From Candidatus Eiseniibacteriota bacterium (GTDB lineage: Bacteria > Eisenbacteria > RBG-16-71-46 > CAZAMP01): a stretch of 38,411 nucleotides of DNA. The position numbers were made by a program, and so were the translations under genes. The stretch spans positions 1 to 38,411 of the forward strand of contig CBDCYW010000016.1 of NCBI GenBank assembly GCA_965224245.1, read 5' to 3'. The notes under the pieces are model-generated. The model ran no database searches and was not told where the DNA came from. It saw only the letters and a program-made list of their open reading frames with translations. Below, piece by piece: positions 25,467 to 32,239 of this stretch (positions within the stretch are counted from its first letter, which is position 1; each line of letters starts with the position of its first letter).

Positions 25467-25747
25467 TCGTCCGGCTCCTTCGGTATGTTGTCCATGGCGT
25501 CGAGGAGCCAATCTTGAGCGGTCTCGAATGACGACCTCGCCACTTCCCACTTGTAAACTATCTCATTGAGACGGTTTAGCGCGTAGAGCGCGTCGAACAT
25601 CCAGAGTGGAACGTTTGGGTCATCGATACACGCCTGCCGGATTTTCTCCCACGTCTCCGACGCTTCGTGGTAGCTGGCTTTCCGGTCGGGGTTGAACTTG
25701 GCCGAGATGGCCTTATCCCGGAGCCCGTGGAAACGTTTCTCAGCCAT
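25463..25747 (-). CDS. hypothetical protein
   Basis: Translationally coupled ORF starting MAEKRFHG. Confidence 0.6.
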   Translation of the reverse strand: MAEKRFHGLRDKAISAKFNPDRKASYHEASETWEKIRQACIDDPNVPLWMFDALYALNRLNEIVYKWEVARSSFETAQDWLLDAMDNIPKEPDE

Positions 25748-26105
25748 CACGCCGCATCCGTTCGACGAGCCTATCCGACAGGATCGTGGGTGCGGGGCAC
25801 ACATGGTCTACATCCTCGCCCATCAGGTTGGCCCACCATACCCGGTTCGCCCACTCGTTGAACTCGTAGTTGGTTGGTCCGATGGGCGCATCGATAGGGA
25901 CCACAGTGCCAATCCACAGCTCGCACATCATGCCCTCCCATTCGATGACCTCGTCTGTATTCTTGAAGTCGACGAACCCGACGCCGAACATCGGTTGAGT
26001 GTACACACGGGGGAAGTCGGCTGGTAATGCGATCACCTGAACGCGGTGATCTGGCTGCATCCGCCTATCGAGGCACCGCAACAGAACGCGTCTGGTTCTA
26101 GTCAT
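25740..26105 (-). CDS. hypothetical protein
   Basis: GGAGG RBS upstream; 121 aa. Confidence 0.65.
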   Translation of the reverse strand: MTRTRRVLLRCLDRRMQPDHRVQVIALPADFPRVYTQPMFGVGFVDFKNTDEVIEWEGMMCELWIGTVVPIDAPIGPTNYEFNEWANRVWWANLMGEDVDHVCPAPTILSDRLVERMRRDG

Positions 26106-26152
26106 ACTTATAGCGCCTCCACTATACTGCTAACCCATTGCCTCGTGCGGTC

Positions 26153-26368
26153 TCAAAACGAAGCCTTGACAGGTCGATGGCACGGTCCTTGTAATAGCAC
26201 CTCCTCTTGTTCGACATCACGTTCTCGCTGGCCCCCAGACCCGGACCGGACCCGGAACCGCTCGCCCAGCTCGCTCTCGCGCCCGACAAGCGGGCGCTCA
26301 CCGACGACGACACCCGAACAATAGATCACGAACACGGAACGGACCCCTCCTCCTGTCTCTAGTCGCAA
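26153..26368 (-). CDS. hypothetical protein
   Basis: Short ORF; AGGAGGAGG near its 5' end suggests the start is a little downstream. Confidence 0.4.
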   Translation of the reverse strand: MRLETGGGVRSVFVIYCSGVVVGERPLVGRESELGERFRVRSGSGGQRERDVEQEEVLLQGPCHRPVKASF

Positions 26369-26372
26369 CTAC

Positions 26373-26395
26373 TCCCCCGAGCAACGTTTGGGGGA
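26373..26395 (-). terminator. GC hairpin closing the pentamer array
   Basis: TCCCCC-N11-GGGGGA on the minus strand immediately after the final GGCA GGCA; no U-tract. Confidence 0.45.
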
Positions 26396-26610
26396 TGCCT
26401 GCCAGACCCGACCTTGACGCACCCTGCCTCACAACGCCCAACCGCACCTGCCGCACCGTGCCCGGCCGTGCCATGTCGCGCCGCAACTCGCCCAGCCGCA
26501 CCCGCCTTGCCTGACCACGCCCGTCCTCGCCACACCATGACTGGCCGTGCCAGACCCGCCGCATCCGACCTAGCCGCGCGTGGTCGCTCCAGCCCGCGAC
26601 TTGCCGCGCC
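26396..26610 (-). ncRNA. GGY-NN pentamer array, about four units of 9-10 pentamers separated by 4-nt GGCR; candidate guide-RNA array
   Basis: Minus strand: GGTCT GGCAC GGCCA GTCAT GGTGT GGCGA GGACG GGCGT GGTCA GGCAA | GGCG | GGTGC GGCTG GGCGA GTTGC GGCGC GACAT GGCAC GGCCG GGCAC GGTGC | GGCA | GGTGC GGTTG GGCGT TGTGA GGCAG GGTGC GTCAA GGTCG GGTCT | GGCA GGCA. A more degenerate unit lies at 26610-26561. Confidence 0.75.
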
Positions 26611-27079
26611 CGCTAGTTTTCCGCTTGGCCTTCTTGCGCTTCCCTTTCGCGGTGACCTTATCCATCGCCTCGAACACGGCGGCAAGCTCAGTCAGGGTTC
26701 CGTACTTCTCGCGGATCACTTCAAGCTCTGCCAGGGCGTCCTCGAGGAGGACACCACGCGTCTCTGGTGATCTCAATGCATCGACCGTCGAGACGTAGCC
26801 TCCTTTGGGGTGTCGGTCGATCGTGAGTGATGTGTACTCCCGCACTTTGCGTTTATCCGGTCCCACGAACACGACGCACACCGCGATCAGGTTTCGTGCC
26901 TGATGGAGTCGCCATCGCTCGGCTGCCTCGCCGTCGTCCCATTCGAACTCGTTGTGGATTGGTGATGTCTTGGGCCGTGCCGCCTTGACAACGTCCGCCG
27001 GCAGGAGCCTCCCATTCCGCTTTCGGATCTTGGCGAGTTCGGCGCTGACCCTAGCTATCTTTGATTTTGAAGCGGCCAC
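26570..27079 (-). CDS. helical partner protein of the Cas7-like gene (169 aa)
   Basis: ELAKIRKRNGRLLPADVVKAAR..SPIHNEFEWDDGEAAERWRLHQARNLI; GTG 27079 overlaps the end of the RAMP-like gene; basic C-terminal tail. Confidence 0.75.
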   Translation of the reverse strand: MAASKSKIARVSAELAKIRKRNGRLLPADVVKAARPKTSPIHNEFEWDDGEAAERWRLHQARNLIAVCVVFVGPDKRKVREYTSLTIDRHPKGGYVSTVDALRSPETRGVLLEDALAELEVIREKYGTLTELAAVFEAMDKVTAKGKRKKAKRKTSGRGKSRAGATTRG

Positions 27080-27733
27080 AGCCGATCCCCCCACTCTTTG
27101 ATCCCGGCCGACCTTCGCCGACGCCGACCTGAAACCCGGCACGCGTCATCAGGTTCGTGATAGACTCTTGCGAAAGCATATCAGCATCGTACTCGACGTC
27201 GACAACGGCGCTCCATTTCCGCCATGCTGGGCGCGCCCGGATGTCGGGTTTGTCTTTGTTGATCTTGACGAAGTCGGTCCGCATCCTGACACGTCCGTGT
27301 ATCTTGACGAGCCCGACGCCGCTGGTCTTGTCGTATCCCTGCGGCACGATACCGGTGATCGCCTGCTGGGCTGTGGACATGAACACGCCCGGGACGCACC
27401 TGCACGCGCTCACCATTGCCTTTCGGAACGCTTCGGCCGTGATGCCGTCCCATCCATCTTCCGAGATGTGCCGCGCGTCCATGAACAGCTCACGGAAGTT
27501 TTTTGGTTTCAGCGGCTTCTTGTCACGCTTGGCCTTCACTTGCCCCATCTCTTGCGTCGCCATCATCTGGCGCTTTGCCTTTTCGGAGAACTGCTGGAGT
27601 ATCAGATCCCCATTGATGCCCTCGATGTTGAACCGTGCAATGACAAAGTTCGGACGCGAAATCGCGACCTGAACGACCTCGGGATTGCCGGTTCGTCCAC
27701 AGCTTCCACATCTTGTTTCCCTTTCGGCACCAT
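27051..27733 (-). CDS. Cas7/RAMP-like RNA-binding protein; one-base frameshift near the N-terminus
   Basis: ISRPNFVIARFNIEG..DLIL (beta1), GITAEAFRKAMVSAC (alpha1), DIRARPAWRKWSAVVDVEYD, and a C-terminal Gly-rich loop AGFQVGVGEGRPGSKSGGIGCGRF. GGAGGT plus ATG 27733 is out of frame with the body by one base. Confidence 0.7.
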
Positions 27734-27785
27734 CACGACCTCCATTGACGGTTAAGAACTTTGTGGCAGGATCATCAAACCTCAG

Positions 27786-31383: not shown

Positions 31384-32239
31384 GGGGTATCTCCAGGTTC
31401 TTTGCGGCAAGCGCCGCGACGGTGGCATAGCCCTTGGGTTTCGGTCGCTCTGACGGCGGCGAGACGCGGCCGTTGGTCGGGGCGCGGTCGATGTAGTTCC
31501 CGTCCAGGATCTTCGTGATGTTCGTGGGCTTGAGCACCCAATCGAACGCCATCGCGGGGTTGTCGAGCGCGAACGGCTTGGACTTGGCGAACGTCGCGAA
31601 CAGCTCGCGCCACCATTCGAGGTCTGGATGCTGTCGCCACCGCGTCCGAACGGTGTTCTGGCGCTCGTCTTTGATCCCTCGTGGCTGTGGCTTTGCCGGG
31701 AGGTAGCGTTTCCAGAGGGCCAGGATCTCGTCGTATGGCGGCGACCCCTCTGGGGGTTTCTCTTCCGAAGATGAAGATGAAGATGAAGATGAAGATGAAG
31801 ATGAAGAGCTATCGTTAGCCATTGGCTGTTCATTGGCTGAGCCATCACCGTCGGATGGCTGAGCCATAGCTGAGCCATGCTTCCAACGCTTTGCAGCGCC
31901 GCGCTTTCCTGCGTCTTTGCGTTCTCGACGACGTTTCGACTGTGCTTTCAACTCGGATCGAATGCGTTTGTGGTAGATGAATTCGTCGTCGGGGTCGTCC
32001 CAAGCGAATAGCTCTTGTGCCACGCGTCGGACGACATCGATAGGCGCACCCTTTGTGAGAAGGCTGAGCCGTTCGAGATCGCTCGGGAGTTGCCCCTGCT
32101 TGCATCCGGGCGCTGAGCCGCGCCAGCAATGGCAGAGGAGTCGGATGTAGACGCCCTCCTCCTCGGAGGTCATCCACTCGGTATCGGTGAGGTAGTCGGC
32201 TGGGTAGAACTGGAAAGCAGGGGAGTCCGAATTTCCCAC
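31370..32239 (-). CDS. phage replication initiator (DUF1376/YdaU-type N-terminus)
   Basis: PAFQFYPADYLTDTEWMTSEEEGVYIRLLCHCW; low-complexity linker; C-terminal FDWVLKPTNITKILDGNY. Confidence 0.85.
   Translation of the reverse strand: MGNSDSPAFQFYPADYLTDTEWMTSEEEGVYIRLLCHCWRGSAPGCKQGQLPSDLERLSLLTKGAPIDVVRRVAQELFAWDDPDDEFIYHKRIRSELKAQSKRRRERKDAGKRGAAKRWKHGSAMAQPSDGDGSANEQPMANDSSSSSSSSSSSSSSSEEKPPEGSPPYDEILALWKRYLPAKPQPRGIKDERQNTVRTRWRQHPDLEWWRELFATFAKSKPFALDNPAMAFDWVLKPTNITKILDGNYIDRAPTNGRVSPPSERPKPKGYATVAALAAKNLEIPHGDT
31767..31878. repeat. (GAAGAT)6+ tract and GCTGAGCCAT iteron-like repeats inside the initiator; candidate origin
   Basis: GAAGAT x6 at 31767-31802; GCTGAGCCAT at 31836, 31858 and 31869. 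Confidence 0.55.

Follow-up and report, generated by a model that had tools for sequence, protein, structure and literature searches.

The window, the whole 38,411-nucleotide stretch of phage DNA analysed here, carries on its minus strand an operon in the order vipr, a vap-like accessory gene and a tract of short repeats. VIPR (Viral Interference Programmable Repeat), which silences genes in a CRISPR-like manner, was introduced in a 2026 preprint (bioRxiv 10.64898/2026.04.26.720920). Listed from upstream to downstream on that strand, with the repeat tract as a whole placed ahead of its parts, the features of the locus are as follows.

27684..27745, minus strand: likely genuine start of vipr (GGAGG and ATG), out of frame with the rest of the gene in the assembly
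27051..27683, minus strand: vipr, encoding a Cas7-like RAMP effector by homology and fold; these 210 codons and stop are in the homologous frame
26570..27079, minus strand: vap-like accessory gene, 169 aa from the ATG at 27079, or 190 aa if it starts at a GTG at 27142
26610-26396, minus strand: array of GGYNN pentamers (10+10+10+9) from a letter-by-letter parse, read here as a VIPR guide array
26561..26610, minus strand: guide unit U0, 10 pentamers, within the last codons of the vap open reading frame
26557..26560, minus strand: delimiter GGCG between U0 and U1, where a 4-nt step changes the pentamer register
26507..26556, minus strand: guide unit U1, 10 pentamers, NN = CT AC CA AT GT GA CG GT CA AA
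26503..26506, minus strand: delimiter GGCG between U1 and U2, from the parse
26453..26502, minus strand: guide unit U2, 10 pentamers, NN = GC TG GA GC GC AT AC CG AC GC
26449..26452, minus strand: delimiter GGCA between U2 and U3; GGCA is the family-wide delimiter
26404..26448, minus strand: guide unit U3, 9 pentamers, NN = GC TG GT GA AG GC AA CG CT
26396..26403, minus strand: terminal GGCA GGCA, from the parse
26373..26395, minus strand: 6-bp hairpin directly 3′ of the array, lacking a U-run, part of the minimum-free-energy fold

The product of 27051–27683 is a Vipr/Cas7-like RAMP protein. It matches phrog_4652 among the PHROGs (E 1.6e-12), and we found 50 homologues, mostly of 201–266 aa. 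Compared with the PDB, a profile of 46 sequences had as its top match chain 36pp_D, 'SUSP1 Vipr protein' (E 1.9e-5), and it aligned with the Escherichia phage SUSP1 protein (YP_009199429.1; PDB 36pp) with an hhalign probability of 94.4% and an E value of 9.2e-8 over 55 columns that include the G-loop. The homology lies in the C-terminal core and G-loop; overall, the two proteins are only remotely alike (phmmer E 0.041). The AlphaFold model of the protein (pLDDT 92.1) has the same kind of fold as Csm3, Cmr4 and Cas7, with an RRM core, a G-loop and a thumb. Its best folds in the PDB were Csm3/Cmr/Cas7 subunits, nine of them at E ≤ 0.001 and headed by 8do6_E (probability 1.00); across these first nine, among them 6xn3_F and 9g9b_F, the probability was 0.98–1.00, with TM-scores of only about 0.4–0.5. 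As far as the accessible preprint text goes, the GGY-contacting residues of SUSP1 Vipr are H17, R138, D177, W178 and R179 (bioRxiv 10.64898/2026.04.26.720927). Here, R138 and R179 are aligned to R151 and R192, both invariant in the 46 sequences, and D177 to the nearly invariant E190. W178, which stacks on G2, is aligned to an invariant glycine, G191, and this key contact is not kept; H17 falls outside the aligned stretch of the hhalign comparison. A second Vipr of the same family was not found in the genome.

Homology to Vipr reaches to about 27680, though upstream of 27566 its frame holds no ATG, GTG or TTG. A GGAGG (27743–27739), followed after 5 nt by an ATG (27733), lies one frame off. As assembled, vipr may be broken. 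A 151-nt DNA contig of run X2 (depth 2) has one extra base behind 27680 that would align both frames, a low-depth hint that vipr is whole.

The neighbouring gene, a 'partner gene' in the preliminary description of this DNA, is a conserved accessory gene. Its product matches phrog_15946 (E 2e-20), has no match in Pfam, and has 84 homologues, mostly of 140–170 aa. Alongside vipr homologues and GGY arrays, the gene recurs in IMG/VR contigs, in a cyanophage and in phages of Gordonia and Mycobacterium. Its model is confident (pLDDT 92.5), with weak matches of the forkhead, MarR and winged-helix type that are not significant (E 0.3–3, target-normalised TM about 0.5). No likeness was found to the gene downstream of SUSP1 vipr.

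The preliminary description had divided the tract into units separated by GGCG, GGCG and GGCA and closed by GGCA GGCA; our parse reproduced these coordinates letter for letter, and the three NN strings given for U1–U3 proved exact. What had been called a degenerate fourth unit overlapping the end of the partner gene is U0, a run of ten pentamers with a 20/20 target of its own. The proposed unit length of about 54 nt stands as the size of a 10-pentamer unit but not as a constant period, since units in related arrays run from about 39 to 74 nt. Fit to GGY was 8 of 10 pentamers in U1, 8 of 10 in U2 and 7 of 9 in U3, with 4 of 10 in U0. The 165-nt array holds 17 GGY...GGY pairs at a distance of 5, compared with a mean of 2.0 (sd 1.4, maximum 9) in 5000 dinucleotide-preserving shuffles, and the best 12 windows of 165 nt on either strand of the whole stretch all lie at the array. 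Tandem Repeats Finder did not call the array, as expected because two of its five positions are free. At a GGY threshold of at least 9, the 6.9-Mb assembly has three places besides the array (C1:4929655-4929929, C1:4931496-4931921 and C1:839580-839818); we rejected these as VIPR arrays, as they are exact 18- or 39-nt tandem repeats with an invariant 'NN'. No promoter-like sites were found, and terminator-like sites occurred on the opposite strand only, with none called on the minus strand.

At the DNA level, the array has no relatives among 50,697 phage records, and 40 related genomes gave only two 29-nt matches of chance size, in two genomes; protein-level relatives were therefore used for comparison. 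These were 16 arrays lying beside homologues of vipr and the accessory gene, read with a tolerant parser; rows in which the parser had tiled GC-rich coding DNA, with a low density of score, were ignored. A simple GGY score placed an array on the gene's strand at 8 of the 12 loci first fetched. It missed the arrays at L006, L007, L009 and L010, where the tolerant parser found GGCA-delimited arrays, as it did in all 16 regions given to it. The second level of structure recurs in relatives: of 116 non-pentamer delimiters, 84 are GGCA and 4 are GGCG, and 70 of 100 internal units have 7–11 pentamers (median 9). Pentamer positions 1–2 are GG in 601 cases, GT in 184, TG in 59, GC in 54, GA in 34 and CG in 29; a pyrimidine (C or T) occupies position 3 in 840 of the 1011 pentamers; and all 16 dinucleotides are used at NN.

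The preliminary description had also taken every unit for a guide of its own, with specificity set by the NN bases, and had proposed a search with gapped patterns. We scanned the assembly holding the phage contig at gaps of 0–3 on both strands, with U1–U3 covered across all gaps and U0 at gap 1 only, and with 40 NN-order shuffles per unit at gap 1 as the control. Gap 1 alone gave target matches. The best were 20/20 for U0, U1 and U2 and 17/18 for U3, each in a different gene, and all four units exceeded all 40 of their shuffles (maxima 18, 17, 18 and 16 for U0–U3). Sites outside the array with at most one NN mismatch numbered 1, 2, 7 and 6, respectively. At gaps 0 and 2, U1–U3 reached maxima of 15–17, and no site had one mismatch or fewer; at gap 3, the array on the phage's own contig (C17) matched itself and nothing else, and this contig is absent among the gap-1 matches. 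Four units with four targets of their own bear out the reading of each unit as a guide and of the tetramers as boundaries of specificity, and the expectation that NN should vary across related phages holds in the Gordonia phages Pipp and UmaThurman, which belong to the same genus and carry different guide sets.

The target of U0, matched at 20/20 (G000:C1:1411814-1411842) and at 18/20 on C19, is codons 66–75 of a tyrosine integrase (PF00589, E 7.8e-20). U1 matches at 20/20 at C5:5502-5530, with 19/20 on C9 and 18/20 on C6, in codons 105–114 of a 183-aa gene that matches phrog_23746 and phrog_4151, 'DNA binding protein'; the end of this gene overlaps the start of the large terminase, a position that suggests a small-terminase-like gene. 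U2 reaches 20/20 on C9, C23, C22, C18 and C11 and 19/20 on C20 and at C1:6107272, in the zinc-ribbon region of large serine recombinases (PF00239, PF07508, PF13408; phrog_95, E 1.8e-114), and its pattern has 0 exact matches in IMG/VR. U3 has as its target a large terminase of the GpA type (PF05876; phrog_675, E 3.4e-109). The assembly holds no perfect U3 site; six copies match at 17/18 (C9, C6, C5, C2, C11 and C1:6118906). The mismatch always falls at the guide dinucleotide AG, where five target copies have CG and the one on C1 has AA. In IMG/VR, U3 matches three contigs at 18/18, all in frame, and one of the two fragments scanned carries phrog_2, a large terminase, with the match aligned at the equivalent terminase motif; on a rough estimate, an 18-base pattern may meet about one chance match in a collection of that size. 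These three contigs are one homologous family.

The gene content of contig C9 (ParB, a methyltransferase, a DnaB-like helicase, an O-like initiator, a sigma factor, a serine integrase, an HNH endonuclease and terminase genes) indicates that the targets are phage genes. The assembly could be a binned one and not that of an isolate; that the phage and its targets reside together is best supported at three sites only, those on contig C1 (6.45 Mb).

In all 18 target sites examined, NN falls on positions 1 and 2 of sense-strand codons and the skipped base is the wobble base; in the accessible text on SUSP1 VIPR, the skipped base likewise lies on the codon wobble position (bioRxiv 10.64898/2026.04.26.720920). 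Target copies vary at 20 of 35 skipped columns compared with 8 of 78 NN columns, a difference partly built in, as the copies were chosen by NN match. The serine-integrase copies on C11 and C9 differ at four wobble bases and U2 is still 20/20 on both; by skipping the wobble base, one guide holds a perfect match across copies with four synonymous differences. Where flanks were inspected, target and GGCR(G) junction share the base at 3 of 8 positions, about the level of chance, and the delimiter bases appear from this comparison not to pair with the targets. Each stretch of complementarity runs no further than the last pentamer ahead of a delimiter, and the delimiters therefore separate guides.

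We are highly confident in reading the tract as a VIPR array of the staggered vrRNA type, carried on a 38.4-kb phage contig, with four guides directed against genes of rival prophages. The guide interpretation of the preliminary description was thus essentially right, and the VIPR mechanism itself has already been published (bioRxiv 10.64898/2026.04.26.720920). As far as the accessible text of that preprint describes them, staggered arrays share with our locus the Vipr RAMP gene, the small accessory gene and the GGY/NN tracts, and they have the same overlap, in which a GGCRG shares one G with the next GGYNN, equivalent to the 4-nt slip seen here. VIPR as described there also has the same specification of NN by a 1-nt-skip rule, the same skipping of the wobble base and rival mobile elements as targets. 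The available legend to its fig. S18 states that successive vrRNAs overlap by 1 nt (bioRxiv 10.64898/2026.04.26.720920; PMC13142463). Our array differs in that two of its four delimiters are GGCG, where GGCA is usual in related arrays, and in that its first guide lies inside the open reading frame of the accessory gene, unlike the staggered arrays in the accessible description.

The type II VIPR of Escherichia phage SUSP1 has the same order of vipr, small downstream gene and array. Its guides of 9–16 repeats are a further likeness, so far as the available text goes (bioRxiv 10.64898/2026.04.26.720927). SUSP1 vrRNAs are about 100 nt long and transcribed one by one, each bearing a conserved 3′ tail and pseudoknot (bioRxiv 10.64898/2026.04.26.720920), whereas the units here abut with no tail between them. 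Class 1 CRISPR backbones likewise place one protomer per fixed guide step; there the step is 6 nt with 5 pairing, and here it is 5 nt with 2 pairing bases. CRISPR-Cas systems have a repeat-spacer array, other cas genes and an adaptation module; in the 38.4-kb stretch, nothing of CRISPR size stands in the tandem-repeat list, Pfam and PHROGs gave no Cas family for the neighbour genes tested, and none of these components was seen in either.

In the published model, as presented in the accessible text, one Vipr protomer binds each pentamer, sequestering GGY and leaving the NN pair exposed; these dinucleotides then pair with double-stranded DNA and pass over each third base of the target (bioRxiv 10.64898/2026.04.26.720920). 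By analogy, Vipr would form a filament on the array RNA, and the guide-bound protein would bind target DNA and repress its transcription. A repeat one base short (GGCG or GGCA) breaks the register, and there the specificity of one guide ends and that of the next begins; the transcript would, on the model of the preprints, be cut at the delimiters. The four guides are aimed at the tyrosine integrase, the small-terminase-like gene, the serine integrase and the large terminase of other temperate elements within the assembly; judged from these matches, the phage most likely silences the integration/excision and packaging genes of rival prophages. For U0, activity is uncertain despite its 20/20 target, because only 4 of its 10 pentamers have GGY and, according to the accessible text, GGY mutations abolished silencing in SUSP1 (bioRxiv 10.64898/2026.04.26.720920).

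Within the same VIPR system, the array might instead stay uncut: a single transcript would carry four tandem filaments, and the 4-nt steps would be register breaks rather than processing sites. We think this unlikely, while giving it some weight. Sequence parsing and Rfam revealed no nuclease, ribozyme or conserved tail between the units, and a search of 25500-27500 against Rfam, ribozymes included, returned no family at E ≤ 1. The array RNA folds no better than shuffles (z −0.88), which fits a protein-bound single strand, and the 91-nt 3′ flank with the hairpin does no better either (z +0.85). In its accessible parts, the preprint names ribozyme-interspersed and single-vrRNA layouts as confirmed by sRNA-seq and makes no such mention of the staggered layout, which is described from sequence. 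The targets, for their part, show independent specificity of the units and not their physical separation. Against an uncut array, the legend to fig. S18 of the preprint speaks of 'boundaries of individual processed vrRNAs', and the near-invariant A of GGCA (84 of the 116 delimiters in relatives) resembles a recognised site more than a spacing defect. A bolder version, which we regard as quite doubtful, is that the staggered array is self-punctuating: GGCR alone would end and start Vipr filaments on an uncut transcript, requiring no nuclease, ribozyme or 3′ pseudoknot, four rival-prophage loci would be held at once, and the first guide would also encode the basic tail of the accessory protein.

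Outside VIPR, a periodic protein-binding or G-quadruplex-forming RNA or DNA with no guide role deserves brief consideration. TRAP is a ring protein wrapped by RNA with triplets spaced 5 nt apart, and the GG that recurs every 5 nt on one strand only, at 11 sites per 54 nt, would suit either wrapping of a TRAP-like ring or two-layer (GGN3)n quadruplexes. We hold this to be very improbable, as it accounts neither for free positions that match four phage genes, at up to 20/20 and at no gap but 1, nor for a neighbouring gene that encodes a RAMP protein; on these two grounds we dropped a TRAP-like RNA, a (GGN3)n G-quadruplex and an antisense C-rich Rho-loading site. As for a decaying microsatellite, which the preliminary description had already rejected, or a coding repeat of the long GC-rich open reading frames 26359-26685 or 26298-26564 on the minus strand, open frames do cross the tract and the vap frame enters it by about 40 codons, but this reading is refuted by the target matches, the shuffles and the grammar of related arrays and retains next to no credence: the repeat period, 5, is not divisible by 3, positions 1–3 are conserved and 4–5 free both here and in the 16 related arrays, decay would not keep NN strings perfectly matched to other genes, and the genome's true coding tandem repeats differ in having exact 18- or 39-nt units.

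With the rivals weighed, the staggered VIPR array remains our reading, and it makes this locus a clean natural test of the staggered layout, with four abutting units that each have a perfect or near-perfect target of their own. Natural targets are given here unit by unit for a staggered array; in the accessible preprint text we found no such targets. In cultured phages, the array has been annotated as a protein gene (gene 43 of Pipp and gene 40 of UmaThurman), and these annotations can be corrected; the presence of the Vipr and accessory families in cultured Gordonia and Mycobacterium phages provides laboratory-tractable members. Were the self-punctuating reading true, one RNA bearing four filaments would hold two integrases and two terminase genes.

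Re-read on the minus strand, the tract parses into runs of GGYNN pentamers separated by tetramers, in exact agreement with the preliminary description, whose dinucleotide (NN) strings for the units U1–U3 also proved correct. The window is the entirety of C17, a phage contig, on whose minus strand lie a DNA methylase gene, vipr, a vap-like partner gene, the array, and genes for an HTH protein and a large terminase.

Minus-strand features of the array and its neighbouring genes
27051–27566, minus strand: upstream gene (vipr) as listed, phrog_4652
26570–27079 or 26570–27142, minus strand: partner (vap-like) gene, phrog_15946
26610–26561, minus strand: U0, ten pentamers, then GGCG
26556–26507, minus strand: U1, ten pentamers, then GGCG
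26502–26453, minus strand: U2, ten pentamers, then GGCA
26448–26404, minus strand: U3, nine pentamers, then GGCA GGCA

The GGY periodicity of the array is far above chance: its 165 nt hold 17 GGY-to-GGY pairs at distance 5, against a mean of 2.0 and a maximum of 9 in 5000 dinucleotide-preserving shuffles. The twelve top-scoring windows of the 38.4-kb sequence, on both strands, all fall within the array, and at least nine such pairs occur at only three places elsewhere in the 6.9-Mb assembly. C1:4929655–4929929, C1:4931496–4931921 and C1:839580–839818 were rejected as arrays, being G-rich tandem repeats of identical 18- or 39-nt units whose 'NN' is invariant. The array escapes Tandem Repeats Finder, as expected of a pentamer with two free positions; a perfect GAAGAT hexamer (6.8 copies) lies at window positions 31767–31807. 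U0, located inside the vap ORF, fits the GGY scaffold in just four of its ten pentamers. No Rfam family was found around the array.

Our initial reading of the tract as a periodic protein-binding RNA was given up when the literature indicated VIPR, a phage RNA-guided silencer. According to these reports (10.64898/2026.04.26.720920, 10.64898/2026.04.26.720927, 10.64898/2026.10.15.759431, 10.64898/2026.10.21.760802), VIPR comprises a minimal Cas7-like RAMP protein, Vipr, and guide RNAs (vrRNAs) of GGY/NN pentamers; each protomer takes one GGY, and the NN pairs read DNA with one target base skipped between pairs. 'Staggered arrays', whose vrRNAs have a 1-nt overlap, appear in the legend to fig. 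S18 of bioRxiv 10.64898/2026.04.26.720920, the available text of which does not state sRNA-seq confirmation of the layout. That overlap is equivalent to the 4-nt slip seen here if the final G of GGCRG also serves as the first base of the following GGYNN. The tract is a staggered VIPR guide array, of a kind already published in 2026.

In a phmmer search of PDB sequences, the upstream gene matched best to 36pp_D, 'SUSP1 Vipr protein', from an Escherichia phage (E 0.041), a match that improved to E 1.9e-5 with a 46-homologue profile. By hhalign, SUSP1 YP_009199429.1 aligned across the C-terminal core and G-loop with 94.4% probability. The AlphaFold model (pLDDT 92.1) matched Csm3, Cmr and Cas7 subunits, nine of them at E<=0.001, in a fold library older than the PDB Vipr entry. 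Opposite the SUSP1 GGY-contact residues R138 and R179, this Vipr family has invariant arginines, and D177 is aligned with a glutamate in this Vipr, whereas the position of W178, also a GGY contact, is occupied by an invariant glycine. At the 5′ end, no ATG, GTG or TTG occurs in the vipr frame upstream of 27566 on the minus strand, yet homology extends to about 27680; GGAGG, 5 nt and then ATG at 27733 (minus strand) lie one frame off. The break is either a genuine frameshift or a mistake of assembly or homopolymer length. In one depth-2 contig of run X2, an additional base behind 27680 would bring both frames into one, a weak hint that vipr is probably intact.

The partner gene has no Pfam family that we could find, and its confident model (pLDDT 92.5) gave weak structural matches of winged-helix type. 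It bears no likeness to the gene downstream of vipr in SUSP1 and is therefore an accessory gene of another class. Its ORF extends some 20–40 codons beyond the end of most homologues. The very basic tail that ends it, KGKRKKAKRKTSGRGKSRAGATTRG (window 26570–26650, minus strand), is absent from most homologues and overlaps U0; instead of being functional, this tail may simply reflect an ORF that runs on into the array.

The NN strings of U1–U3, joined by 0, 1, 2 or 3 wildcards, were searched against the whole assembly on both strands, and all four units were scanned at gap 1.

Targets and best matches at gap 1
U0: tyrosine integrase (PF00589); 20/20 at C1:1411814–1411842, 18/20 on C19
U1: 183-aa gene overlapping the large terminase start, 'small terminase' by position only; 20/20 on C5, 19/20 on C9, 18/20 on C6
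U2: large serine recombinases (PF00239, PF07508, PF13408); 20/20 on C9, C23, C22, C18 and C11, 19/20 on C20 and C1
U3: GpA-type large terminase (PF05876); 17/18 on C9, C6, C5, C2, C11 and C1

The enrichment of gapped matches over shuffled controls that the preliminary description had called for appeared at gap 1, where U0–U3 reached 20/20, 20/20, 20/20 and 17/18 against maxima of 18, 17, 18 and 16 in 40 NN-order shuffles per unit (C17 excluded). For U1–U3 in the assembly, gaps 0 and 2 scored no higher than 17 and gap 3 returned the array itself only; the phage's own contig is absent from the gap-1 matches, its sole hit being that gap-3 self-match. At every site, NN falls on the first two codon positions of the sense strand, and the base that is skipped is the wobble base.

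Three of the targets lie on C9, a temperate-phage fragment. One temperate-phage family, with a serine integrase and GpA-type terminase, is represented in the assembly by six or seven diverged copies (C2, C5, C6, C9, C11, C18, C20, C22, C23 and C1:6.10–6.12 Mb), many on small contigs; the terminase copy on C1 is a 221-aa ORF only. These may be separate prophages, strain variants or binning products, and the assembly itself may be a bin. The best basis for linking phage and host is the three target sites carried by the 6.45-Mb contig C1. In the region C1:1404000–1420000, the integrase targeted by U0 has genes for tRNA-Arg, an AAA_25 ATPase and an HTH_17 protein nearby, in what looks like a small integrated element.

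Target copies vary at 20 of 35 skipped columns versus 8 of 78 NN columns, the latter figure being partly circular because copies were selected by NN match. Variation at the wobble positions is nonetheless genuine: four wobble bases separate the serine-integrase copies of C11 and C9, yet the C11 copy keeps its 20/20 match to U2. Most of the NN mismatches are exchanges between the arginine codons CGN and AGR, the only kind of synonymous change that the VIPR code cannot skip; opposite the AG of U3, five target copies have CG and the one on C1 has AA. In IMG/VR, U3 matched 18/18, in frame, in three contigs of one homologous family; one of the two fragments scanned has a phrog_2 (large terminase) match and aligns at the equivalent terminase motif. 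With about one chance match of an 18-base pattern expected in such a collection, by rough estimate, these matches are suggestive only. U2 had no exact IMG/VR match, which underlines the specificity of its five perfect matches in the assembly.

The partner gene has homologues in ten IMG/VR contigs and in twenty phage records, from Gordonia and Mycobacterium phages and a single cyanophage; vipr has them in 33 records, many from the same phages. Of the first 12 loci, 8 have a strong GGY array next to the gene and on its strand, usually between both genes, and a tolerant parser found arrays in the remainder. Two arrays are annotated as 'hypothetical protein', Pipp gene 43 (L011 2254–2523) and UmaThurman gene 40 (L020 2162–2485); both sit between vipr-like and vap-like genes and are probably not protein genes. 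The gene pair with GGCA-delimited arrays is found in many cultured Mycobacterium smegmatis phages (e.g. Quico, L022 37686–38755) and in Cyanophage Cy-LDV1, near cro/antirepressor or excisionase genes.

Across 16 arrays, GGCA accounts for 84 of 116 delimiters and GGCG for 4, two of these in the window; 70 of 100 internal units have 7–11 pentamers (median 9). The delimiter grammar of the preliminary description is thus conserved, while its ~54-nt unit is simply what ten pentamers and a tetramer add up to. Nor is NN invariant across related phages: the congeneric Pipp and UmaThurman carry different guide sets, and those of Ecliptus and ODay are partly common. The proposal that each unit is a separate guide is supported, with four units facing four different targets and complementarity spanning exactly the pentamers between delimiters; junction bases agree with targets at three of eight positions. 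We infer that the transcript would be cut at GGCR. The earlier observation is confirmed and its interpretation supported. The locus offers a worked natural example in which every unit between delimiters is matched to a separate target, and cultured actinobacteriophages carry members of this family as well.
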